From: Patescibacteria group bacterium
GTDB taxonomy: Bacteria; Patescibacteriota; Patescibacteriia; SBBC01; CAIJZX01
Assembly (NCBI GenBank): GCA_038065275.1
Contig: JBBTRH010000002.1
Coordinates: 34,756 to 98,755, forward strand
Reading direction: 5' to 3'
Length of the DNA stretch: 64,000 nucleotides
In this document: positions 2,115 to 63,180 of the stretch, in pieces
How the letters are laid out: the number at the start of each line of letters is the position of its first letter
Numbering within the stretch: the first letter of the stretch is position 1
Notes under the pieces: generated by a model
What the model saw: the letters and a program-made list of their open reading frames with translations, nothing else
The model's database searches: none
Told to the model about the DNA's origin: nothing
Program-made: the position numbers and the translations under genes

Positions 2115-2265
2115 CCTGCCAAGTGCCACTCGTCGCGGAGTTTATCCCGCCGTATGGCGGGGCTTCCTTGGATGCTTAGCGGCGCCATCTTGTTGGAGGA
2201 GCAATGTGGGTAAGGTTTCGTTTGGCGACTTAACTCTTCCGGGGACAGGTTATGACCCGCCTTGC

Positions 2266-2294
2266 TTGACCTTTTTCGGCACCTAGCCTAGTAT
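2266..2294 (+). promoter_or_regulatory. sigma70-type promoter (TTGACC-17-TAGTAT)
   Basis: Hexamers with exact 17-nt spacer about 55 nt upstream of the 2350 ATG; GAGGGA Shine-Dalgarno 8 nt before the ATG. Confidence 0.5.
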
Positions 2295-2349
2295 CGGCGT
2301 ACTACCGAAGCGGACAGGACGTTGACAACAAAATAATGAGGGACTGGAA

Positions 2350-3024
2350 ATGGCTGATGGAATGGAAGACAGGGTGCATGATTCACTCCTCGCCTTTACT
2401 GACTTCTTGTATGCGGTGGTGTTTGGCATGATCGTCGGAAAAATCTTCGAAGACGTCATCAACGCCACTGGTCACTGGGGTGATAAGTTGGGGAAAATCG
2501 CCCTAGTCGGCGGAGTTTTCTACTTCTTGGCCTGGGATTGGTTACACGGTCGGTTGTTGACCCTGAAGAACCCATACCGGGGATATTGGCGATTTTTTCT
2601 TGAAATAATCATCGCGTGTTGCGGTTATGGGGCAGCACTTGGGGCCGTAGCAGCAAGCCCCTCTCTCCTGCTCTACATTGCCGTAATTCTATTGCTCGGT
2701 GTGTGGTGGTCCACGCTGACCATACGCGAATATCCTCAAAGCATCGATCTGCGGGAACTACGGTTTGTCATAAGATACCAATTAGTTGGCTTCACTTTTC
2801 TGCTCGTCTTCTCCGCGACCTACTTAGCCCAAGTCGGGACTCGGATACATCCGTGGGTATCGATACCATACGTACTCTGGGGATTCCTTTTTGTTTTCAT
2901 CTATGAGCTTTTCATCGAGCGCCCACCGGGGATGCTTGGCGGACCCGGAGTTCCATTCGTGAATAGAGAAATCATGACAGCGGCCAGAAGAAAAATCTTC
3001 CGTCCTAAGAAAGGAGAAGAATAA
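2350..3024 (+). CDS. hypothetical polytopic membrane protein
   Basis: 224 aa with about 6 hydrophobic helices; own promoter and RBS. Confidence 0.5.
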   Translation: MADGMEDRVHDSLLAFTDFLYAVVFGMIVGKIFEDVINATGHWGDKLGKIALVGGVFYFLAWDWLHGRLLTLKNPYRGYWRFFLEIIIACCGYGAALGAVAASPSLLLYIAVILLLGVWWSTLTIREYPQSIDLRELRFVIRYQLVGFTFLLVFSATYLAQVGTRIHPWVSIPYVLWGFLFVFIYELFIERPPGMLGGPGVPFVNREIMTAARRKIFRPKKGEE

Positions 3025-3026
3025 GA

Positions 3027-3128
3027 TGGTTGTCAAGATCATTATTCTTTTCGCCCTGGCTTACATCAGCACGATTCTGGCTGGCTTTCTGGCCGATCAC
3101 TACTCACGGCGAAAACCCAAGCGCTAGT
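3027..3128 (+). CDS. small single-TM peptide (33 aa), unannotated in ORF track
   Basis: ATG 2 nt after upstream stop, AGGAG 8 nt upstream; MVVKIIILFALAYISTILAGFLADHYSRRKPKR; lies between upstream gene and a canonical terminator. Confidence 0.3.
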
Positions 3129-3150
3129 CGCTACACGCACCTTCTCACCC

Positions 3151-3183
3151 AGGGGTTGGCCGTACAACCCCTGTTTTTATTTG
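3151..3183 (+). terminator. rho-independent terminator
   Basis: AGGGGTTG-gccgta-CAACCCCT hairpin followed by GTTTTTATTT. Confidence 0.7.
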
Positions 3184-3383
3184 AGTGCGGAGATATATCA
3201 GAACAAAACGGTTGTTTGGTCTCGACGATTTTCGGTTCGCGGCTGGAAAAAATATGCACCGTTCCGAAAACACCGCCATATCCCGGAACGATGTCCAATT
3301 CCCCCTGCTGAACCCGTAACATCCCAATCTTTCTTCCGCCGCCCATGATTTGTTTCGTCGAGTCTCTCAGCAGATGACGCCTG

Positions 3384-3495
3384 GTCAACCCCGTTAGAAG
3401 CGACTAAGCCGCAGTTTGTTGATGAAATGTTGTTATGTGGCCACAAACAAAGTATATTATTTTAGTGTAGGCTTTCCGCTTCTAACGGGGTTGAC
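3384..3495. repeat. Inverted-repeat element family A (19-bp arms GTCAACCCCGTTAGAAGCG, ~75-bp loop)
   Basis: Left arm 3384-3402 and right arm 3477-3495 are exact reverse complements; same core CCCCGTTAGA(A/G)GCG also at 15550-15657 and 63028-63103. Confidence 0.6.
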
Positions 3496-3519
3496 AAGGT
3501 TGCTCCCGCCAGGTACAAT
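3491..3519 (+). promoter_or_regulatory. sigma70 promoter of rpmA (TTGACA-17-TACAAT), -35 formed by the repeat arm
   Basis: Consensus -35, 17-nt spacer, TACAAT; 40 nt upstream of rpmA ATG. Confidence 0.6.
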
Positions 3520-3559: not shown

Positions 3560-3853
3560 ATGGCCCACACTAAATCCGGCGGTTCGACCAGTCTCGGCCG
3601 CGATTCGCAAAGTAAACGGCTCGGCGTGAAGTTGTTTGCCGGCCAACGGGCGCGGGCCGGAGCGATCCTGGTTCGCCAGCGCGGGGCGCGTTTTTTACCG
3701 GGCGATAACGTCGGCCGGGGCGGAGACGATACTCTGTTCGCAATGCGGACCGGAACCGTCAGTTTCAAGAGCACCGGAAGAATCCGCTACGACGGACGGC
3801 GCGTCATGCGGCGGTATATTCACGTCCGGCCGGCGCAGTCGGCCGGTCGTTAG
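3560..3853 (+). CDS. rpmA: 50S ribosomal protein L27
   Basis: N-terminus [10 protein letters not shown]...RLGVK matches L27 signature MAHKKGGGS..RLGVK. Confidence 0.85.
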
Positions 3854-3878
3854 TCCCGGCTCACGACTGGGGATCGCC

Positions 3879-3926
3879 TCATTTTTTAGTTCCGGCCCGC
3901 AGGAGATCGACAAACAGCGGGTCTAG
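3879..3926. repeat. degenerate (~80% identical) duplicate of the pyrG 3'-proximal segment 4291-4335
   Basis: ttttttagttccggcccgcaggagatcgacaaacagcgggtctag versus gtttttagtccggcccgcaatagaccgacgaacagcggatgcggg; encodes ...PLFVDLLRAGTKK* on the minus strand versus pyrG ...PLFVGLLRAGLKTQKRST*. Confidence 0.55.
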
Positions 3927-3929
3927 GCG

Positions 3930-4199
3930 CTAGGAAACGAATATCTTTGACTCGTCGAGAATGATACCCTTGGCCTTCAGCTCGCGGATCAGGTTTTGCA
4001 TTTCCTGACGCATGGCCAGCATTTCCATAATCGCGTCAAGTTTAGCATCGACTTCGTCGAAGCGCTGGTCGGTATGTTCTCGTTCTTTACCCAGGCTTCC
4101 AGTAAAATGTCGAGCTAAGTCCGTAATCGAAGACCGGATCCGTTGCTCCGAGGCGTCGAGGTGGGTCTTAGTGATCGTTAATGATGTGCGTCGCACCAT
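3930..4199 (-). CDS. small hypothetical protein of the 'KLDAIM' family (paralog of 10355-10633)
   Basis: About 90 aa; shares ...DAKLDAIMEM... with ...INTKLDAIMSGEV... in the paralog; own TTGACA-17-TAGACT promoter at about 4205-4245. Confidence 0.5.
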   Translation of the reverse strand: MVRRTSLTITKTHLDASEQRIRSSITDLARHFTGSLGKEREHTDQRFDEVDAKLDAIMEMLAMRQEMQNLIRELKAKGIILDESKIFVS

Positions 4200-4271
4200 A
4201 ATAAAGGTATCTTTGTGGCCAGTCACCTGTTGGCCTGAGTCTAGGTTATTCTTCCTCAGTTGTCAATACGC

Positions 4272-5915
4272 TCAGGTGGATCGTTTTTGCGTTTTTAGTC
4301 CGGCCCGCAATAGACCGACGAACAGCGGATGCGGGCGAAGCGGCCGCGAGAGAAATTCAGGATGGAATTGGGTGCCGATGAACCAGGGATGATCGCGCAG
4401 TTCTAAAATTTCGACCAGCTGTCGTTTTGGTTCGAGACCGGCCACCACCATCCCCGCCCGCTCAAAGACCGACCGAAACCGGTTTTGGAATTCATAGCGG
4501 TGGCGGTGGCGTTCGTCAACCTGCCGGCGACCGTAGGCCAATGCAGTTTTCGTGTGCGACCGCAAACGGCAGGGGTACGACCCTAACCGCATCGACCCGC
4601 CGAGGTGGCGCTCTCGCACCAGCCGTTCCTGTTCGGGCATCAGGTCGATCACCGGTTTTTGCGTTTGCGGATTGACCTCGGTCGTGTTGGCGTCGCGCCA
4701 CCTAAGAACATGACGCGCGAACTCGACGGCCATCAACTGCATGCCGTAACAAAGCCCGAGGAAGGGAAGGCGGTGCGTTCGGGCGTACTTAATGACGTCG
4801 ATTTTTCCGGCCACGCCGCGCGGCCCGAATCCGCCTGGTACGATCAGCGCTTGAAAATTATCAAGTTCGCGCAATTTTTTGGGACGGCCGTCATAATCTT
4901 CGGCATTCAGCCAGGAAATCTCGACCGGCCGCCGCAATGACCAGGCGGCGTGTTTGACCGCCTCGATCACCGACAAATACGAATCGCTCAGGGTAAACGC
5001 CCCGCTGGAAAAATACTTGCCGACGATGCCAACGCGCAGTGATCTGGCTTTAGATTCAGCGCCGCGGACGAAATATTTCCAGTCGTGCAGATCGCGGCGC
5101 CGCACCGGCAGGTCAAACTTCGCTAGGATCTTTTCCGCCAAGTGTTCCCGCTCGAAGTTTAAGGGAATAGTGTAGATGTTCTTGACATCCGGAGCGGAAA
5201 TAATATCGCTCGGGTGCATGTTACAGTTGATCGACAGTTTCTCCTTGCGCGTTGTATCAAGCGATACTGCTCCGCGTCCGAGAATAAAATCGGGTTGGAT
5301 GCCGGCGGCGTTGAGCGTGCGCACGGCGTACTGCGTGGGTTTCGTCTTCATTTCCCCGAGTTGCCCGGGAATCGGCAAATAGCTTAGCAGGACGAACTGG
5401 ACCCGACCAGGCATCCGCAGGTGCATCATCCGGGCCGCTTCAAGGAATAACAGGTTCTGGTACTCACCGACCGTCCCGCCGATTTCCACCAGCTGAATGG
5501 CCGACCGATTGACCCGGGCGGCCGTGATCACCCGGCGGATGACTTCCTCGGGCACGTGCGGGACGACCTCGACGCACTTGCCGCCGTAGCCTAAGGCCCG
5601 CTCGCGCTCAATGACCGACAGGTAGACTTGGCCGGTGGTCATGTAGTCGTGACGGGTGAGCGTCACGTCCAGAAAGCGTTCATAGTTGCCGATATCCTGG
5701 TCGGTTTCCAGTCCGTCGGCGGTTACGAACACCTCGCCGTGCTCGGTCGGGTTCATGGTGCCGGCGTCAACGTTGATGTAGGGATCGATTTTCATGGCCC
5801 CCACCCGGTAGCCGCGGCTTTTGAGGAGCAGGCCCATGGACGAGACCGCGATCCCCTTCCCTAGACCCGACAGCACGCCGCCAACCACGAAGATGTAACG
5901 CGTTTTATTCGGCAT
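4272..5915 (-). CDS. pyrG: CTP synthase
   Basis: 547 aa; N-terminus MPNKTRYIFVVGGVLSGLGKGI and C-terminal glutamine amidotransferase domain. Confidence 0.95.
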   Translation of the reverse strand: MPNKTRYIFVVGGVLSGLGKGIAVSSMGLLLKSRGYRVGAMKIDPYINVDAGTMNPTEHGEVFVTADGLETDQDIGNYERFLDVTLTRHDYMTTGQVYLSVIERERALGYGGKCVEVVPHVPEEVIRRVITAARVNRSAIQLVEIGGTVGEYQNLLFLEAARMMHLRMPGRVQFVLLSYLPIPGQLGEMKTKPTQYAVRTLNAAGIQPDFILGRGAVSLDTTRKEKLSINCNMHPSDIISAPDVKNIYTIPLNFEREHLAEKILAKFDLPVRRRDLHDWKYFVRGAESKARSLRVGIVGKYFSSGAFTLSDSYLSVIEAVKHAAWSLRRPVEISWLNAEDYDGRPKKLRELDNFQALIVPGGFGPRGVAGKIDVIKYARTHRLPFLGLCYGMQLMAVEFARHVLRWRDANTTEVNPQTQKPVIDLMPEQERLVRERHLGGSMRLGSYPCRLRSHTKTALAYGRRQVDERHRHRYEFQNRFRSVFERAGMVVAGLEPKRQLVEILELRDHPWFIGTQFHPEFLSRPLRPHPLFVGLLRAGLKTQKRST

Positions 5916-6351
5916 GGTCGATGGTAACGGTCAAGGTGGCGCGGTGCTGGTCGGCGAGGATGACGGTCAGCTGATGGGTGCCGATTGTTTTTAGGTGGTC
6001 AGGTTCGCAACGCAAACCAGGCAGGTGCAGGCCGAACTGGCGAGCCAACTCTTGACGAATGGTCTCGGCCTTGACCGCGGCGAATAACGTCCCCTGGGCA
6101 CTGGCCCGGCCGTGAAGTCTGACCGTGACCCCAGTCAGCCGTTGAACAGCCGCCGTCATCTCGGCTGACTGCTGATGTTGTTGTCGTTGCTGACGGGTAG
6201 CGGCGGCGGCCTGAGCGGTGACGACCGCCCGGGTGGCCGGCACCGCCAATCGCTTCGGCAACAAAAAATTCCGGGCGTAGGCATCGCTCACCTCAACCAG
6301 GCTATTGGCCCGGCCCAGATCACGGACGTTTTTGAGGAGCTGGAGTTTCAT
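5905..6351 (-). CDS. rplI: 50S ribosomal protein L9
   Basis: MKLQLLKNVRDLGRANSLVEVSDAYARNFLLP is the L9 N-domain signature; start overlaps the ctpA stop (ATGA). Confidence 0.85.
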   Translation of the reverse strand: MKLQLLKNVRDLGRANSLVEVSDAYARNFLLPKRLAVPATRAVVTAQAAAATRQQRQQHQQSAEMTAAVQRLTGVTVRLHGRASAQGTLFAAVKAETIRQELARQFGLHLPGLRCEPDHLKTIGTHQLTVILADQHRATLTVTIDHAE

Positions 6352-7559
6352 CAGGACGAACTCAGGAGATCAAGCGCGCGATCGCGTTGCACGTCGGCGG
6401 CGGCGTCCTGGCCGGCGGCTTCTACCACCACGTCCGGAGTGATGCCGTTCTCGGCGATCGACCGGCCCTTGGGGGTCAACCACTTGGCGACGGTCAGTTT
6501 TAGGCTTGAACCGTCGCTCAGCGTCTGGTAATCCTGGACCGTGCCCTTGCCGAAGGTCAGGGTTCCGACGACCGTGCCGCGGCCGGTATCCTGCAACGCT
6601 CCGGCCACGATTTCCGAGGCGGAAGCGCTCCCGCCGTTGACCAGCACCACGACCGGCTGATCAGCCAAAAAGGCGTTGCCGACGGCGTCGAATGTTTGGC
6701 GCTGACCGTCGCGGTCCACTTCGGCCACGATCAAGCCGCGGGAAATAAAGACGCTGGCCACGTCGACCGCCTGATCAAGATAGCCGCCGGGGTTATTGCG
6801 CAGGTCAATCAATACGCCGTCGAGAGATTGGGCGGCGATGGCCTTAGTCTTGGCCCGTAGTTCGCGTCCGGTATCGCGGTTGAAGCTGGTAATGATGATG
6901 TCCGCCACCCGCCGGCCGCGATGCTCGGTCACCTTGGCGCTGACCGAATCGACGGTAATCTTGGCGCGGGTAACCGTGAATGTTTTCGGTTGCGGGTCGG
7001 CGCCGCGCTGGATGGTCAAGTTGACCGTCGTCCCTTGCTGACCGCGGATAGCGTCGATCACTTGGTCGAGATTCAGGCTACTGGCATCCTTGGTGTCGAT
7101 GGTCAGGATGGTGTCGCCGGCTTGCAAGCCGGCTTTTTCGGCCGGTGACTTTGGCAGCGGCGCGATGATCGTCACCTGTTTATTTTTGTAGCCGACTTGC
7201 ATCCCCACCCCCTCGAACGTGCCGCTGATTTCGTCTTCGAATTTCTTCGACTCGTCGGCGCTCAAGTAGGTTGAATAGGGGTCGCCCAGGCCGGATACCA
7301 GGCCGGCCACGGCCCCTTGCAACAGGTCGCGATCGTTGACGTTCCGGTTGACGTACTCGGTATGGAGCCGGTCCCAGACCTGGACCAGCTGGGAGTAGTC
7401 GACGTTTTGCGGCCACGGACGGAGCGCGGCGATGGCTTGCTGGAGCGTGGTCGGCCGGGTGGAGCGCTGGCTGGAGACGGTGACCGTCACCCCGACCGCA
7501 AAACCGACTACCAGCAAAACGGCGATACCGGCCAGACGGGTTAGGCGCGGGGACAACAT
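6351..7559 (-). CDS. ctpA: carboxyl-terminal processing protease (S41) with PDZ domain
   Basis: N-terminal TM, PDZ (GDTILTIDTKD), S41 catalytic region (NGGSASASEIVAGALQD). Confidence 0.85.
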   Translation of the reverse strand: MLSPRLTRLAGIAVLLVVGFAVGVTVTVSSQRSTRPTTLQQAIAALRPWPQNVDYSQLVQVWDRLHTEYVNRNVNDRDLLQGAVAGLVSGLGDPYSTYLSADESKKFEDEISGTFEGVGMQVGYKNKQVTIIAPLPKSPAEKAGLQAGDTILTIDTKDASSLNLDQVIDAIRGQQGTTVNLTIQRGADPQPKTFTVTRAKITVDSVSAKVTEHRGRRVADIIITSFNRDTGRELRAKTKAIAAQSLDGVLIDLRNNPGGYLDQAVDVASVFISRGLIVAEVDRDGQRQTFDAVGNAFLADQPVVVLVNGGSASASEIVAGALQDTGRGTVVGTLTFGKGTVQDYQTLSDGSSLKLTVAKWLTPKGRSIAENGITPDVVVEAAGQDAAADVQRDRALDLLSSS

Positions 7560-8957: not shown

Positions 8958-10253
8958 ATGTCCCGCTCCGCTCGCCGCATCTATTACAGCTCCGCTTTCG
9001 CCGTCTTCCTGGTGGCGGGACCGCTGTTGGTGGCCTGGACCGGCGGCTACCGCTGGGTTAATTGGCGGGCCGGTTTCGTCCGCACCGGCGCGCTAGTTAT
9101 TTCCAGCGACCCGCGAGCCACGGTGTTCCTCAACGGCCAGCCGCGCGGCTTGACGCCGCAGCGCCTGACCCACCTCCGGCCAGGCACCTATACGGTCGAG
9201 TTGAAAAAAAACGGCTGGGCGACCTGGCGGCGGGACGTTCGCATTGTGCCGCGGACCGCCCAAGTCATCGGCCCGGTGTCATTGGTGCCGCCCCAGTTCA
9301 CGTCCGTCAAGATCGACCTTGGCCAGGCTCAGGACGTGATCGCCGCCGACGACCGGCAAACTATCTTCGGGGTGACTAAAAACGCCAACGACTGGTCGGT
9401 GCAGGCCGTCTGGCCCGATCCCTGGCCGACATCTACCAGGCTCCCCTGGCGGCCCACGGCGGTGAGCGTCAGTCCGAACCGCCAGACCGTCGTTTACCGT
9501 GATGACCGCGCCGCGGCGATCGTCAACAAAAACCGCGGCGATGCCGTATGGCTGACCGCCGCCCCGGACGCGATCACCTGGGACCCATCGTCCGCGAACA
9601 TTGTCTACGGCCGGCGCGACGGCACGCTGTACCGCTACGACGCCCTGACCCAGGGCGTGACCGCCCTCGGCTCGGCTGACTCATTCTCGCTGGTTGGTGA
9701 TTCCCTGTGGGTGACGCGAACCGCCGCCGCCGCGACGGTGATCACCAAACAACGGACTTTCGGCCAGAGCGTTCCCGACGTGGTGATACAATTGCCTGAC
9801 GAGTGGATCTTGGCCGACACCGGCGCGCTGACGCTGAACAATCCCAAAACACGAGAAATGACCGAACTCCGGTCCGACCCATTGACGAACCAGGTCACCA
9901 CCAGCTCCTTCGGCCTGGTCGATCGGATGTGGTGGACTGACCGCGCCCAGCCGCCGCTCTGGCTCAACGGGAGTGACCTGTTGACCTTCGACGATCGCCA
10001 GCGGACGATCCTAGTCGACCGTTACCCGCAACCGCCAACCGCGGCGTGGTGGCTGGTTCCCGGCCATATCCTTTTGACCTTCGACGGTCAAACACTCCGC
10101 ATCGCCAGCGTCAGCGACCGGCAAGGACGAGGCACCCTGCTGGAACGGCGATTGGCCGTTCCCGGCCAGTTGCTCGGTTTCGACCTTATCAAGCGTGAGG
10201 CGGTTTTCCAAACCGGTACGAATCCTCCGCAGTTATCGGCCTGGCGTTGGTAG
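8958..10253 (+). CDS. PEGA domain-containing membrane-anchored protein with repeat/beta-propeller-like C-terminal region
   Basis: Likely start at internal Met (ORF 8874-10253); TM helix then PEGA segment (ATVFLNGQPRGLTPQRL...GTYTVELKKNGWATWRRDVRI). Confidence 0.55.
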   Translation: MSRSARRIYYSSAFAVFLVAGPLLVAWTGGYRWVNWRAGFVRTGALVISSDPRATVFLNGQPRGLTPQRLTHLRPGTYTVELKKNGWATWRRDVRIVPRTAQVIGPVSLVPPQFTSVKIDLGQAQDVIAADDRQTIFGVTKNANDWSVQAVWPDPWPTSTRLPWRPTAVSVSPNRQTVVYRDDRAAAIVNKNRGDAVWLTAAPDAITWDPSSANIVYGRRDGTLYRYDALTQGVTALGSADSFSLVGDSLWVTRTAAAATVITKQRTFGQSVPDVVIQLPDEWILADTGALTLNNPKTREMTELRSDPLTNQVTTSSFGLVDRMWWTDRAQPPLWLNGSDLLTFDDRQRTILVDRYPQPPTAAWWLVPGHILLTFDGQTLRIASVSDRQGRGTLLERRLAVPGQLLGFDLIKREAVFQTGTNPPQLSAWRW

Positions 10254-15345: not shown

Positions 15346-15519
15346 TTACAACTGTCGCTCAGTCTCTTCAAAAAAAAGTTCGGCCGCTTCCGCAAATCGC
15401 TGCTTCGCCTGATCGAATGTTTTTCCGGAGGTCGACAAATCAAGCGCGGGTGTATAGGCGATAAAACGCTTACCCTCGCGGAGAATGGAAACGGGTAGAA
15501 TAATGTTGCGAACGGCCAT
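15346..15519 (-). CDS. HicB-like/UPF0150 family small protein (57 aa), below ORF-track cutoff
   Basis: MAVRNIILPVSILREGKRFIAYTPALDLSTSGKTFDQAKQRFAEAAELFFEETERQL fits the UPF0150 pattern; -10 ends 6 nt before ATG (leaderless). Confidence 0.4.
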   Translation of the reverse strand: MAVRNIILPVSILREGKRFIAYTPALDLSTSGKTFDQAKQRFAEAAELFFEETERQL

Positions 15520-15525
15520 AAGGCG

Positions 15526-15554
15526 ATACTATCAAATCAACGTCGTTTTGTCCA
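15526..15554 (-). promoter_or_regulatory. sigma70-type promoter (TGGACA-17-TAGTAT) for the HicB-like ORF; -35 provided by repeat arm
   Basis: Hexamers and spacer read directly on the minus strand. Confidence 0.4.
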
Positions 15555-15657
15555 CCCCGTTAGAGGCGAACGCTGACACCAGAAGAACGGTTGATTTTCC
15601 CGGCGTCCTGAATTGTACTATATGACCGAGGCAAACCACCCTCGCCTCTAACGGGGT
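15550..15657. repeat. Inverted-repeat element family A (arms GTCCACCCCGTTAGAGGCGA / TCGCCTCTAACGGGGT, ~72-bp loop)
   Basis: Same core as 3384-3495; right arm abuts stop codon of 15657-16649. Confidence 0.55.
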
Positions 15658-16649
15658 TAATATTTCGCCAAGGCCGCGTCCGACGGCGCAGTATTCGGGG
15701 CCGGGATTTTCGGTTCTTGTTGCTTTACCGCGGGCGGAATGAGTTCGGCCGGCGCGACCGCGATCAAGCCGTCACTGGTGAAAATGGCGTCCCCTTTTGA
15801 CACTCTGACCATCGTCGTGCCGTTCAGTCCGTCAGCCACTTGATCAGCTCGGACGTTAGTTAAGGCATACGTAGCGCCGTTGACTTCGATATTTTGCCGG
15901 CCGGGATAATGATTGGCGGAAAACGCCAGTCTGGTGCCGTCAGTGCTCAGGGAGATCGGAGTAAAGGGGGTCTTGGCGTAAGCCGGCCCCTCGGCCAGGA
16001 ATACCCGCCCGTTAAAGGCTAATAAGCGTTGCCGGCTGGTTACATTGGAAATCAACACGTCTTCGCTGGCGACGATGTCGATCAAGTAGACACCGGGACG
16101 GTCGGCCGGCAGTGACAACGCGACGCGCTGGGGTCTCCCGCGCCGCCCCTTGGCGACCGTCACGCCGTCGTCCCCGACCGTGACGGTTTTTAGCCAGGTT
16201 GGTCGTTCGGCGGCGATGGTGTCGACCCTGGCTATACGGGCAGTTAAAGTCTCGGGGCCGAGATACCGATTGAGATCGACTTTGTCGAAGCTGAACTGAA
16301 TGGTTTCGAGAGCGGCATAAATATAAATCTGGTGACTCCCGCGAAACGTATTGTTGATGGTGATCGGCGCGGCGCTCGGCCGGTATCCTTTGACGACCAC
16401 TGACGCTAATCGATTGACCACCTTGTTCCGGCGGGGAGATGTTTTTGCGACGCGAATATTAACCTTTTTCGTGACGGCGTAAACTTGGGTGATATTGACT
16501 GGATTCCAGCGGAAGATATTATCAAAATCGATAAAAGAAAAATGGCTGTTTACAAGCAATGCGAAAAAGAAGATTGGGACGGTAACTATGATGCCCTTGA
16601 GCGCCTGTAAGCGCGTACAAAAATGTAGTTTTGGGAGTGACTGGTTCAT
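15657..16649 (-). CDS. membrane-anchored surface protein, paralog B
   Basis: 330 aa; N-terminal signal anchor; conserved blocks shared with paralog A. Confidence 0.5.
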   Translation of the reverse strand: MNQSLPKLHFCTRLQALKGIIVTVPIFFFALLVNSHFSFIDFDNIFRWNPVNITQVYAVTKKVNIRVAKTSPRRNKVVNRLASVVVKGYRPSAAPITINNTFRGSHQIYIYAALETIQFSFDKVDLNRYLGPETLTARIARVDTIAAERPTWLKTVTVGDDGVTVAKGRRGRPQRVALSLPADRPGVYLIDIVASEDVLISNVTSRQRLLAFNGRVFLAEGPAYAKTPFTPISLSTDGTRLAFSANHYPGRQNIEVNGATYALTNVRADQVADGLNGTTMVRVSKGDAIFTSDGLIAVAPAELIPPAVKQQEPKIPAPNTAPSDAALAKY

Positions 16650-48968: not shown

Positions 48969-49074
48969 GACCAGCCCCACTTTGGTCGGTTTAATTTTTT
49001 TGGCAAAGTAAATGTCCAGTCGCAGTAACGTCATAAAGAAGATTAACTGCTTTATTGCCAAAGTGGCGCTGGTC
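48969..49074. repeat. Inverted-repeat element family B (arms GACCAGCCCCACTTTGG / CCAAAGTGGCGCTGGTC, 72-bp loop)
   Basis: 16/17 complementary; same arm core as the 21-bp perfect IR at 61133-61245. Confidence 0.55.
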
Positions 49075-54224: not shown

Positions 54225-55019
54225 TTAGAACTGCTTGACCGTCTCGACGTACAGGCAAAATGGACACTCTGGCGCCGGCGCCGGCAATGACCCGTCAAGA
54301 ATATCAATCGCTTTCAGCACGTCCGGTTTGACCCGGGCGGGGTTCGTGTGGAGCGTTTTGACGGTGATTTGCATCGGAAACCCTTCGTGTAACTTCTGCC
54401 CTTCGGACGGATAAAAATATATCAAATAGCCGATGCCGCTGGGCGGTTTACGGTTCTGCTCAAGCAGGAAAGCGTAGCTGTCCAGTTGGAATTGGTAGGC
54501 CGGAATCAGTTCCCGCGTGGTCGGGTCGGAGGAAGCGGTTTTATGGTCGACCGGGGTGTACCTCCCGTCACTCTGCACCACGCATTCATCAAGTTTCCCC
54601 AGATAGCCGTACTGATCATTGATGGCGGCGAAATATTTTTCTTGAAACGGCGACTCCAGCCGACCGTCAATCTGACCGGCCACCAACGGCGGCAGGTCGG
54701 GCGTGCCGCGATAGAGATCGAAGTAGCGCTTGATGACGCTGTCGAAACGATTGGCCAATCGCGAAACGATGCCTTCCGGCCGGTAGATTTTCCGATTGAT
54801 TTGCATCCAAAAACACCGCGGACAGCGCCGCGACGTTTCAATCGCTGTGGCTGAGAGCCAGCGCTTTTTTCCTGGTGCGGGTGGGATCGGCTGAGGAACG
54901 ATATGCTTCGTACCAGTACTGACTTTAGTCCGTCGCACGGACATTTTTTTTCCAACCTTGCCCCGCGTCGAAAACAAACTTCCCTGCTCACTGACTGACG
55001 ATCGTGATCGCGGTGTCAT
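54225..55019 (-). CDS. PD-(D/E)XK nuclease family protein (Cas4/RecB-like) with two Cys-x2-Cys pairs
   Basis: CPRCFW near N-terminus, CPFCLY at C-terminus, acidic/Lys motif (KLDE ... VDHK); no CRISPR array in window. Confidence 0.55.
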   Translation of the reverse strand: MTPRSRSSVSEQGSLFSTRGKVGKKMSVRRTKVSTGTKHIVPQPIPPAPGKKRWLSATAIETSRRCPRCFWMQINRKIYRPEGIVSRLANRFDSVIKRYFDLYRGTPDLPPLVAGQIDGRLESPFQEKYFAAINDQYGYLGKLDECVVQSDGRYTPVDHKTASSDPTTRELIPAYQFQLDSYAFLLEQNRKPPSGIGYLIYFYPSEGQKLHEGFPMQITVKTLHTNPARVKPDVLKAIDILDGSLPAPAPECPFCLYVETVKQF

Positions 55020-55078
55020 AGCGAGCAGTATACCACGAACGTCAGGACTCTAGGAAGCGCACCGCCGGCCCTTAGTTC

Positions 55079-55245
55079 AGTGCCGATTCCACCGGCAAGT
55101 CGTGATGACTATGGACAGGATTCGGTTCATCAAAGGTCGGTCGGTAGTATTGGAGGTCGACATTGTGCTGGCCGAGGATCTCCTTGATGCCGTCCCGCAG
55201 TTGGCGCAGTGCGGCGTGGCGGCATATGGCTGGCAGTATACCACG
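55079..55245 (-). pseudogene. C-terminal fragment (about 50 codons) paralogous to gene 56266-56571
   Basis: Translates to ...RHAALRQLRDGIKEILGQHNVDLQYYRPTFDEPNPVHSHHDLPVESALN* versus ...RHLRDGIHEILGQHNIDIQYYRPVFDEPNPLDHNHVHKS* of the intact gene; about 70% DNA identity. Confidence 0.5.
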
Positions 55246-60685: not shown

Positions 60686-61063
60686 CTAGACCAGGGGTGA
60701 TTCGACGCTCAGGCTGTCGACTTCGTCACTGAAAACTTCCTCCCAACTGTCCATGGCCTTCTCCACCAAGCGGTACCCGCGGCGGTTGTGGCGACGGAGC
60801 GTATCGTGCTCCAGCTCGAAGAAGATGGTCGCCGCTTCGTCGCGCATCCACTTCACCATGTCGTCCGTCACCGGCAGGTTACGATAGCGGGAACCGTGGA
60901 GGCGCTTGAGGCGCATCAGCAGGGCCGCGACCGCGGTCCACAGCACCTCTTGCTCCGGCGTCAAATCTGGGCGTTTCCTTAAGCGGCTACCTGCTGACTC
61001 CTGGTTGACGCGACCGACCCCGAACTGCCGGACGAGACTGATAAAGAACTGTCGCACCAGCAT
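60686..61063 (-). CDS. hypothetical protein
   Basis: 125 aa; strong RBS (AGGGAGG) 8 nt upstream and TTGACA-16-TACGAT promoter. Confidence 0.4.
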   Translation of the reverse strand: MLVRQFFISLVRQFGVGRVNQESAGSRLRKRPDLTPEQEVLWTAVAALLMRLKRLHGSRYRNLPVTDDMVKWMRDEAATIFFELEHDTLRRHNRRGYRLVEKAMDSWEEVFSDEVDSLSVESPLV

Positions 61064-61109: not shown

Positions 61110-61137
61110 ATCGTACTCCACCGCGAAAAAATGTCAA
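61110..61137 (-). promoter_or_regulatory. sigma70 promoter (TTGACA-16-TACGAT); -35 supplied by terminal GTCAAC of IR element
   Basis: Read on minus strand upstream of 61063 start. Confidence 0.5.
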
Positions 61138-61245
61138 CCCAGCACCACTTTGGCTTATCCGTAGGTTTTTTTACCCGAGTTCATCTGCCATGAAAATCAA
61201 TTGGGCGGAAAACATGCATTTTATCCAAAGTGGTGCTGGGTCAAC
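61133..61245. repeat. Inverted-repeat element family B: perfect 21-bp arms GTCAACCCAGCACCACTTTGG / CCAAAGTGGTGCTGGGTCAAC with 71-bp loop
   Basis: Exact reverse complements; located between tRNA-Gln and the next gene. Confidence 0.6.
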
Positions 61246-61444: not shown

Positions 61445-63025
61445 CTAGGCCTCTCCGAAACTCGACACCACCTGCTCCCATAAATCCCCTGGTGGCGGTG
61501 CCGGCGCGGTGGCCGTCGGGTTCGGTGTGGCTTTGATCGCGGTCGGAATTGGCGCCGGCGTAGCGGTGGTCATGACGCTCAGCCGGACCGGTCGGCCGAG
61601 GGCACGCTGAAGCGCCGCAATCAACGGTTGGCTGTACTTCGGATCGCTCAAGCGATCGGCATGGAGTTTGAACGGCACGTGTAAAATCACTTCTTCGTCA
61701 TTCAGGTCGCCGATCGAAGCGTGCTGGACGCTCAGGCCCAGACTGGGGTGGGTGTGACCAATAGTCCGTTGAATTGCCTGCCAGGCCTGGCGGACGGCTT
61801 GGAGCGTTAATTGCGAGCCGGCAGATTTTCTTTTGACGGTCGGCGATGACGGCGTCGGCGGTGATGGGGGGCGGCCAGGCGCGATGGGCGGCGGCGTCGG
61901 AGGCGGCGAGGCCTCGCGTCCGGCCGTCGCCATGGAGGCGGTGATGGTGATGATCGCCAATTCGACCGGCAACTCGGCCATGACCGACCGGCTGAGCCGC
62001 CGCTCGGCGGTTAACCATACTTCGATCATCTGGTTGAGCTCGGCCACGGTGGCTGTTTGCGCTAAGTCGATCAGCCGCTGGACGTCGGTCCGGTCGAAAT
62101 CGGCGGCCACCTGCTGGATCAGGCTTGGATCGACCGCACTGAGCAACAGGGCGCGGGTGGTCATCACCAGCTCATGAACGAGATTCGGGATATCGCCGCC
62201 CTCGTCGCAGAACTGGTGGAAGCGGTTAAGCGCGTCAACCGTTCGACGCTGAAGGCACTCCTCGAGCAGATTGAGAATCAGTTGTTGATCGGATCGCGGC
62301 AGAACGAGATCGGCGATGTCATTGGTAATCCGCTGATCGGCGAAAGAAAATAGTTGGCCTAACATAGTCTCGGCGTCGCGCACTGATCCTCCGGCCCGGC
62401 GTGCAATCCGCCGCGCCACATCGTCGTCAAGCCGGCGGTGTTCGGCGGCGGTCAGTTTCTGCAGGCGGGCGATGATGTCTTCGACGACGATTTTCTTGAA
62501 GTCAAACCGCTGGGTCCGCGAGACGATCGTTTCCGGGATGCGGTGGACTTCAGTGGTGGCCAGAATAAACATGGCGTGAGCCGGCGGTTCTTCCAGGAGC
62601 TTTAACAGGGCGTTGAACGCCGAGGTCGACAGCATGTGGACCTCGTCAATGATAAAGACCTTCCGCTTGGCCATGGCCGGGATACTGTGAGCGCTGTGAA
62701 TGATGTTTTCACGGACATGGTCGACGCCGGTGTGCGAAGCGGCGTCGATTTCAACGATGTCGAGGCTACTGTTGGTAAGAATGGCTCGGCAACTGGCGCA
62801 GGCGTTGCACGGTTCGCCATTCGCCCGGCGGTCAGTGCAGTTGACGGCCCGGGCCAGGATTCGGGCCAGGGTGGTCTTACCGACGCCGCGCGGGCCGGCG
62901 AACAGATAGGCGTGGGCCACCCGATCCTGCTCCAAGGCGTGTTGCAGGGTGATCCGAACGTGTTGCTGGTCAACGACGTCAGCAAAGGTCAGCGGTCGAT
63001 AGGTGCGGTAGAGCGCCTCGGCCAT
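61445..63025 (-). CDS. dnaX: DNA polymerase III subunits gamma/tau
   Basis: MAEALYRTYRPLTFADVVDQQHV, Walker A GPRGVGKTT, zinc module CTDRRANGEPCNACASC. Confidence 0.9.
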   Translation of the reverse strand: MAEALYRTYRPLTFADVVDQQHVRITLQHALEQDRVAHAYLFAGPRGVGKTTLARILARAVNCTDRRANGEPCNACASCRAILTNSSLDIVEIDAASHTGVDHVRENIIHSAHSIPAMAKRKVFIIDEVHMLSTSAFNALLKLLEEPPAHAMFILATTEVHRIPETIVSRTQRFDFKKIVVEDIIARLQKLTAAEHRRLDDDVARRIARRAGGSVRDAETMLGQLFSFADQRITNDIADLVLPRSDQQLILNLLEECLQRRTVDALNRFHQFCDEGGDIPNLVHELVMTTRALLLSAVDPSLIQQVAADFDRTDVQRLIDLAQTATVAELNQMIEVWLTAERRLSRSVMAELPVELAIITITASMATAGREASPPPTPPPIAPGRPPSPPTPSSPTVKRKSAGSQLTLQAVRQAWQAIQRTIGHTHPSLGLSVQHASIGDLNDEEVILHVPFKLHADRLSDPKYSQPLIAALQRALGRPVRLSVMTTATPAPIPTAIKATPNPTATAPAPPPGDLWEQVVSSFGEA

Positions 63026-63027
63026 AT

Positions 63028-63103
63028 CTCGTTAGAAACTTCTTTTAATCAGCGTGGCGGGCATGGGGAAAAGATGTTGTGTCCCACCCAAGTTTCTAAC
63101 GGG
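63028..63103. repeat. Inverted repeat (CTCGTTAGAAACTT / AAGTTTCTAACGGG) of family A core, 3 nt upstream of dnaX start codon
   Basis: 14-bp arms with about 48-bp loop; shares CGTTAGA(A/G) core with elements at 3384 and 15550. Confidence 0.45.
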
Positions 63104-63180
63104 ACATAGACTAGTAGTGTACCCGAAGCAAGCGACCGGCCGCAAGATGGCCGGCGCTGTGGAGAACTCGGCTCGCCCCA

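Follow-up and report, generated by a model that had tools for sequence, protein, structure and literature searches.

The Correia elements (NEMIS) of Neisseria are non-coding MITEs of ~100 to 155 bp that are bounded by terminal inverted repeats and present in many intergenic copies. Their 26-bp repeats hold promoter parts, their insertion duplicates TA, their ends and flanks often combine into promoters, and they yield a long hairpin when transcribed; they are not known outside Neisseria. The RUP elements of Streptococcus pneumoniae (~107 bp) have ends that match those of IS630-Spn1, also duplicate TA, and are believed to rely for their mobility on a transposase supplied in trans from another locus. 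Patescibacteria (CPR) genomes are generally regarded as small, with little mobile DNA. We analyzed a stretch of 64,000 nucleotides (hereafter the window) from a Patescibacteria MAG recovered from groundwater, close to Candidatus Kerfeldbacteria, and found at least five inverted-repeat elements within these 64 kb, beside essential genes (rpmA and dnaX). They are comparable to the Correia elements in their ~100-bp MITE format, inverted repeats, promoter-side placement, and transcribed hairpin, but differ from them in the repeat sequence, a 4-bp TNNA duplication, a −35 hexamer lying outside the repeat, and a distribution over many phyla. Membership in Correia/NEMIS was rejected on the 4-bp duplication, the differing repeat, and the Patescibacteria MAG as host. 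RUP and other IS-derived bacterial MITEs are similar in size, but no matching IS was found here. The 110-bp element upstream of rpmA is probably one copy of a non-autonomous, non-coding, MITE-like transposable element. A description of the family was not found in the literature searched.

The perfect 19-bp inverted repeat that a preliminary description had placed at 3384-3402 and 3477-3495 is seen in the sequence (GTCAACCCCGTTAGAAGCG and CGCTTCTAACGGGGTTGAC, with 74 nt between them), and can be extended to 23 bp with one mismatch (3380-3402/3477-3499). The conserved repeat core stops at CCCC/GGGG (3389-3490), with GTCAA/TTGAC and the −35 hexamer belonging to the flanking DNA. The palindrome reaches past this core because the left flank equals the inverted right flank, and the 4-nt flanks are TCAA (3385-3388) and TTGA (3491-3494), without a direct 4-bp duplication. 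This inverted flank presumably arose by palindrome extension through template switching, or by recombination between copies. The inner 4 nt of the arm (AGCG) vary between copies, with complementarity to the opposite arm being kept. A weak promoter-like match directed at rpmA, TTGTTA-17-TATATT (3430-3458), lies within the interior. Upstream of this copy are a 224-aa ORF and a terminator-like hairpin at 3150-3183, and downstream is rpmA. Two other assemblies (L001 and L002) stop in its AT-rich interior, at window positions 3438-3443 near the small palindrome TGTGGCCACA; coverage was low, at 4x. A search for population variants of this copy with the exact promoter string matched nothing in metagenome contigs.

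Table 1. Coordinates of the inverted-repeat elements in the window and of the features adjoining them
Feature	Position	Strand	Description
Element copy 1 proper	3389..3490	.	102 bp, repeat core to repeat core; CCCCGTTAGA 3389-3398, TCTAACGGGG 3481-3490
Copy 1 left terminal inverted repeat	3389..3402	+	CCCCGTTAGAAGCG
Copy 1 right terminal inverted repeat	3477..3490	+	CGCTTCTAACGGGG
Copy 1 interior	3403..3476	.	74 nt, 35% G+C; unlike interiors of other copies
Copy 1 left flank	3380..3388	+	CCTGGTCAA; right flank TTGACAAGG in inverted form
rpmA promoter TTGACA-17-TACAAT	3491..3519	+	11/12 matches (promoter scan); flanking (target) DNA, outside the element
rpmA (ribosomal protein L27)	3560..3853	+	PF01016; ATG at 3560
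Element copy 2	15555..15656	.	102 bp; arms ACCCCGTTAGAGGCGA/TCGCCTCTAACGGGGT; flanks TCCA/TTAA
Promoter-like TGGACA-17-TAGTAT	15526..15554	-	−35 is the first 6 nt of the copy 2 flank
Second-family element	48969..49074	.	Arms GACCAGCCCCACTTTGG/CCAAAGTGGCGCTGGTC (48969-48985/49058-49074), gap 72
Promoter-like TTGACA-16-TACGAT	61110..61137	-	For 125-aa ORF (ATG at 61063); TTGA is the duplicated target
Second-family element	61138..61240	.	103 bp; arms CCCAGCACCACTTTGG; TCAA flanks at 61134-61137 and 61241-61244
Copy 3 target-site duplication, left	63023..63026	+	CATA, i.e., TATG on the dnaX strand, start codon included
Element copy 3	63027..63104	.	78 bp; arms TCTCGTTAGAAACTT/AAGTTTCTAACGGGA; between −10 (TACACT) and ATG of dnaX
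Copy 3 target-site duplication, right	63105..63108	+	CATA

The arm core had been said to recur near 15550-15657 and 63028-63103, and copies 2 and 3 do lie there, all three window copies having the core CCCCGTTAGA/TCTAACGGGG in common. The arms of copy 2 (15554-15569/15642-15657) match perfectly over 16 bp with a gap of 72 nt, and those of copy 3 (63027-63041/63090-63104) over 15 bp with one mismatch and a gap of 48 nt. By searching the whole window for all inverted repeats, we found a second arm family (CCCAGCnCCAC; CCCAGCACCACTTTGG-like) with two elements in the window, one of which has its arms at 61137-61153/61225-61241, 71 nt apart. Exact inverted repeats of at least 16 nt with a gap of 20 to 150 nt are expected ~0.002 times in 64 kb (64000 × 131/4^16), and the inverted repeats of the window far exceed chance. 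The window elements are 78 to 103 bp long and have no ORF inside, and the interiors of all five are mutually unrelated (alignment z-scores below 1.4), in line with the dissimilar loops noted in the preliminary description. The arm positions that differ between the copies stay complementary within each of them (AGAAGCG, AGAGGCGA, and AGAAACTT).

The surroundings of these elements are varied. The right end of copy 2 is abutted by the TAA stop codon (15657-15659) of a 330-aa minus-strand ORF, and the promoter-like sequence on its other side precedes by 6 nt the ATG (15519) that starts a 57-aa ORF without a Pfam family; a direct 4-bp duplication is not visible at this copy. The element at 61138-61240 has a tRNA gene on one side and the promoter-like sequence of the 125-aa ORF on the other. 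No target duplication is visible at 48969-49074. There is one perfect DnaA box near 48.9 kb, and an origin of replication at that position was rejected, with neither a DnaA-box cluster nor a skew switch being found. A further 16-bp inverted repeat with one mismatch and a gap of 69 nt (50311-50326/50396-50411) lies over the final codons and TGA stop codons of two genes in convergent orientation, a deoxynucleoside kinase gene (plus strand) and a PGI-like gene (minus strand), with a GC-rich hairpin, CCCCTCCTTATCTAAGGAGGGG, between its arms; this palindrome looks like one built from the flanking coding sequence, similar to the flank-derived extension of copy 1.

The preliminary description had also pointed to a consensus promoter for rpmA at the right end of copy 1 and to TTGACC at the left end read on the opposite strand. 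Both are present, the former with TTGACA at 3491-3496, a 17-nt spacer, and TACAAT at 3514-3519. Its −35 hexamer is made up of the 4-bp target (TTGA) plus CA and lies outside the conserved terminal repeat. Four syntenic relatives without the element have TTGACA-17-TAnnnT at an unchanged distance to rpmA. Since the −35 hexamer is outside the core and the same promoter occurs in four element-free relatives, donation of the rpmA promoter by the element is not supported. The promoter is native, already in place before the insertion, with its own −35 and −10 kept beside copy 1. In ~70 kb from these four relatives, we failed to find any element of either arm family. They also lack the whole block 2115-3500, which is extra in the window genome, and for this reason there is no exact empty site for copy 1 among the relatives but only absence of the element. 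As for the left end, TTGACC on the minus strand has no usable −10, and the sole ORF that it could serve, a 71-aa minus-strand ORF (3134-3346), has no family support and overlaps the terminator-like hairpin. Compared with the four syntenic genomes, rpmA is surrounded by two extra blocks, 2115-3500 with the 224-aa membrane-like ORF and 3854-4271 with a 98-aa coiled-coil-like ORF; neither ORF matched a Pfam family above the curated cut-off.

To see the elements across genomes, we scanned species-representative genomes for CCCCGTTAGA-N66-90-TCTAACGGGG and obtained at least 119 loci, for which ~11 to 14 chance matches were calculated. Among the matches listed, the hosts included Patescibacteria, Saccharibacteria, Omnitrophota, Planctomycetota, Brocadia, Desulfobacterota, Stahlbacteria, Spirochaetia, and others. 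The copies are dispersed singly, and their interiors differ between most loci, being shared within some genomes or clades (e.g., DX4.bin27, L057, and L169). In this selected class, the spacing of the 10-nt cores shows a sharp rise at 74 and clusters at 74 to 86, and shorter forms with loops of 6 to 60 nt were found among neighboring copies unselected by the scan. The second arm family was found at 120 or more metagenome-contig loci and shows a length peak at 103 to 105 bp (cleaned set, n = 79). Both arm families had zero matches in 2.9 million viral contigs, and a phage origin was rejected on this result. A tRNA-derived interior was likewise rejected, a tRNA being enclosed in just 4 of 125 elements. 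At one locus (L010), both copies fall within an inverted duplication of 330 bp that surrounds a lipoprotein gene.

The flanks carry evidence for transposition. The 4-nt flanks outside CCCC/GGGG are direct repeats in 68 of 131 elements, whereas permuting the right flanks gave 11 on average and 21 at most, and no enrichment was seen in the same 131 elements for 3- or 5-nt repeats or for inverted flanks. The duplicated 4-mers are diverse (TAAA/TTTA, 33; TGAA/TTCA, 11; TTGA/TCAA, 9; and others), and the reconstructed empty sites yield G|TNNA|C, a palindromic consensus in which T and A reach 90% and G/C 46%. In the second family, duplications flank 27 of 79 copies against a permutation mean of 3.5, with the same 4-mer spectrum and target logo as in the first family. 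Within the window, a 4-bp duplication is seen at copy 3 (CATA) and at 61138-61240 (TCAA). One locus (L121) has two tandem elements with one CTCA duplication in common, and a 29-bp element bounded by TTAA on both sides is nested in one of the two. Taken together, this is a large, cross-phylum family whose terminal repeats start with CCC and whose members favor a size of ~100 to 105 bp, with a 4-bp duplication at G|TNNA|C. The proposal of a MITE-like family that donates promoters is supported in its first half, given the duplications, the empty site, the tandem and nested copies, the hundreds of copies across phyla, and the absence of coding sequence, but not in its second, given the −35 outside the core and the promoters of the relatives.

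From these features, a mechanism may be outlined. The functional ends consist of the 10-nt conserved outer core CCCCGTTAGA and ~3 to 5 variable, mutually complementary inner bases, enclosing a non-coding interior in which no sequence is conserved, with the total length clustering at ~100 to 105 bp. An enzyme acting in trans would make staggered cuts, 4 bp apart, in the target G|TNNA|C, thereby duplicating TNNA. As GTTGAC fits this target, the insertion may hit the first four bases of a −35 hexamer and leave an intact TTGACA on one side. Both the DDE-type chemistry and a transposase acting in trans are inferred, as is any influence on the expression of rpmA.

The promoter-side placement was also found across phyla. 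In the cross-phylum set, the TTGA duplications are followed by C in six of six cases and by CA in four of six. A −10-like hexamer is enriched 16 to 18 bp past the first flanking hexamer (mean score of −0.91 versus a background of −1.72, sd 0.21), and full promoters occur at 6.7% of the arms versus 0.4% at control offsets. In the window, a −35-like hexamer that has a −10 at 16 to 17 bp directly adjoins three of the five elements. The simplest reading is that G|TNNA|C covers GTTGAC and that insertions sparing a promoter are tolerated; because the target includes GTTGAC, the elements sit on promoters and do not supply them. A mobile promoter inside the element was rejected, as the interiors score no better than shuffles.

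The most direct evidence comes from dnaX, where the insertion can be compared with sites of relatives. The window reads TACACT-actagtc-TATG[TCCCGTTAGAAACTT...AAGTTTCTAACGAGA]TATG-gcc, and L133, whose DnaX is 66% identical, reads TACACT-agtgacc-TATG-gcc, with a single TATG and without an element. The dnaX site presents the classical filled/empty pattern with a 4-bp duplication. The site in L130 is also empty, that in L131 has a decaying copy, and in L132 (1945-2048) the TATG occupied in the window is taken by an element with arms of the second family. Different arm families on the identical TATG mean that the site was reused or the element was replaced. At the site orthologous to 61138-61240, L131 has a counterpart whose arms are identical at 31 of 32 positions, with the interior and the rest of the promoter being unalignable and the length being kept (71 versus 74 nt). 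Elements with the same arms and unrelated interiors at one site need either reuse of the site or selection on the arms.

Several other observations were made in this region. In L131 at ~4530-4960, a tRNA gene downstream of dnaX is apparently interrupted, and the insert between the halves includes another copy of that tRNA. A DnaA-box-like 9-mer, TTCTCCACA, lies upstream of the dnaX promoter in the window (63158-63166, minus strand), and is kept in L130 and L131 though the surrounding intergenic DNA is not. The −10 is just 6 to 8 nt before the ATG at dnaX in L130 (~9985-10003) and L133 (~2985-3003) and at the 57-aa ORF in the window (15519-15531), which suggests leaderless mRNAs.

The counterparts at 61138-61240, with their nearly identical arms, unalignable interior, and kept length, would also suit a structural module selected by the host, in which the hairpin, as RNA or as a DNA cruciform, serves as a promoter-side insulator, processing site, or stabilizer and is kept whatever its mobile origin. 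The excess of promoters next to the arms, both in the window and across phyla, points the same way, as does copy 3, which would be transcribed in the dnaX leader and whose one arm mismatch is a G-U pair on the dnaX strand. However, the four close relatives have the same rpmA promoter without the element, the L131 copy at the dnaX site is decaying, in other copies the arm mismatches do not regularly form wobble pairs on the strand that is transcribed, and the promoter association is equally explained by the GTTGAC target preference. We therefore regard such a module as unlikely to be the main account of the elements, and keep to that of a transposable element.

The palindromic regulatory module put forward in the preliminary description is not supported, since the element is missing from orthologous promoters, its neighbors are unrelated genes, and the same arms are found in distant phyla. 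A pair of operators bound by a regulator protein, or a promoter switch that inverts between two recombinase sites, could draw on the two identical half-sites adjoining −35 hexamers, on the promoter-like TTGTTA-17-TATATT in the copy 1 interior, and on the break of two assemblies within that interior. Nevertheless, no regulator or recombinase recurs near the elements, whose neighbor genes are unrelated; the interiors are not enriched in promoters; only one orientation is seen in the two other same-population assemblies that cover part of copy 1; and 72 to 74 bp is, in our judgment, very short for inversion. Target duplications, nesting, and empty sites would not be expected of either arrangement, and we consider both very improbable. 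Membership among the invertons was rejected on the single orientation, the lack of promoter enrichment in the interiors, and the lack of a recurring recombinase. Integron attC sites are also imperfect palindromes of ~60 to 140 bp with GTTAGA/TCTAAC-like boxes at the ends and a variable center, but they read 5′-RYYYAAC...GTTRRRY-3′, while the window elements read 5′-GTTAGA...TCTAAC-3′, the opposite polarity. With the polarity reversed, no cassette arrays, and no integrase recurring nearby, attC was excluded.

A gene for a small structured RNA with a long closing stem is more improbable still. Its attraction is the strong predicted fold of the whole copy 1 element (−54 kcal/mol, z = −8.2), together with the tRNA gene found enclosed in the 4 of 125 elements elsewhere. 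The fold energy, however, derives from the arms, the interiors share no sequence, and the 4-bp flanking duplications mean insertion of mobile DNA, unlike a resident RNA gene. No Rfam match to the element reached the gathering threshold, the sub-threshold hits being to a generic hairpin (miRNA precursor). The candidate was rejected after Rfam scans, run at the gathering threshold and by E-value, returned only a tRNA at another place in the window and generic hairpins.

A search for a cognate transposase, as suggested in the preliminary description, failed to find an autonomous element or transposase with these ends in the window, in ~1.6 Mb of fetched loci, or in the relatives. Pfam searches of the window ORFs gave no transposase, pairing arms 300 to 6,000 bp apart gave no convincing full-length IS bounded by them, and no transposase adjoined the orphan arms. 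An all-against-all clustering of the ORFs of 239 loci showed no linked family, only housekeeping families and Y1_Tnp (PF01797), which was the sole transposase-like family recurring near the elements (5 of 239 loci). The IS1380 family of the ISfinder table, with ends beginning with CC and direct repeats of 4 to 5 bp, would fit the window elements in both respects. In the sequences searched, neither a transposase of the IS1380 type nor a full-length element bounded by these ends came up, and this kinship is a tentative lead.

The recurrence of Y1_Tnp bears on a further possibility, in which the elements are REPIN-like hairpins mobilized as single-stranded DNA by a Y1 (HUH) transposase of the RAYT/IS200-like type, with the flanking 4-mers being a cleavage/target tetranucleotide recognized twice. 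REPINs (REP doublets) are ~100-nt intergenic hairpins in many copies with two inverted arms ~70 nt apart, much like the long hairpin of ~100 to 105 bp seen here, and the retained complementarity of the variable arm positions would suit a hairpin substrate. But REP arms are themselves palindromic and carry a conserved tetranucleotide, and a target duplication is not expected of them, whereas the arms here are neither self-palindromic nor provided with a GTAG-type motif, and the flanking 4-mers vary freely within a palindromic target logo typical of symmetric staggered cuts. No Y1 gene was found in the window or the relatives, and five in ~1.6 Mb is, in our judgment, near the expectation for a common gene. 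The Y1_Tnp gene of L023, a Kaiserbacteria MAG, is bracketed by its own, different hairpins with GTAAGTCGGACTTAC (6168-6216 and 6927-6974); this IS200/RAYT-like gene and its hairpins form a separate REP-like system. Membership in REP/REPIN with RAYT was rejected on the arms not being self-complementary, the other hairpins of the L023 Y1_Tnp, and the lack of a Y1 gene in the window. We give this possibility little weight and prefer mobilization in trans with a staggered cut, as outlined above.

Some features nonetheless fit a plain MITE poorly. The copies in the window genome have no common interior sequence, which is unusual for a recently amplified MITE. The complementarity of the arms extends by at least 3 bp in 58% of the elements across phyla versus ~5% expected, and such within-copy complementarity of variable positions points to hairpin formation or to arm-to-arm correction, since transposase binding alone needs none. 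These misfits leave room for hairpin-dependent mobilization, or for selection on some of the copies.

A broader reading, which we offer tentatively as the less probable one, is that both arm families (CCCCGTTAGA and CCCAGCnCCAC) are non-autonomous representatives of a very widespread transposon superfamily that has yet to be described, some of whose copies are retained by selection in Patescibacteria. Such a superfamily would be characterized by CCC ends, a 4-bp TNNA duplication, a size optimum of ~104 bp, and an unrecognized transposase, and its preference for G|TNNA|C would steer insertions to −35 hexamers and transcription start regions. The streamlined Patescibacteria genomes would then retain some copies by selection as promoter-side hairpin modules, and such selection would result in the conserved arms and free interiors at orthologous sites and in the reuse of a site by different arm families.

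If active, the family would be a cross-phylum agent of promoter-proximal insertion. The CCCCGTTAGA family is, in addition, a marker of horizontal exchange within the communities of groundwater and sediment. In annotating genomes, it should be borne in mind that a perfect palindrome in contact with a −35 hexamer may be an insertion at a promoter rather than a regulatory site.

Other features were noticed in the window and in related genomes. In a 99%-identical strain, 343 nt of an intergenic/5′ region (window 54851-55193) are swapped for an unrelated 131 nt (L128 12261-12391). A cluster of sugar dehydratase/epimerase and glycosyltransferase genes at ~16000-40000 has a G+C content of 45 to 50%, compared with 57 to 65% in the rest of the window, and is possibly an island of surface-polysaccharide genes that was acquired. 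Arms 72 to 74 nt apart form a GC-rich inverted repeat, GCGGCGCCGGTCGC, at L128 1816-1917 and L130 7272-7379; in L130 it is inside a gene for a TraG/VirD4-like coupling protein, and in L128 it is just upstream of a called TraG fragment, beyond a run of Ns.
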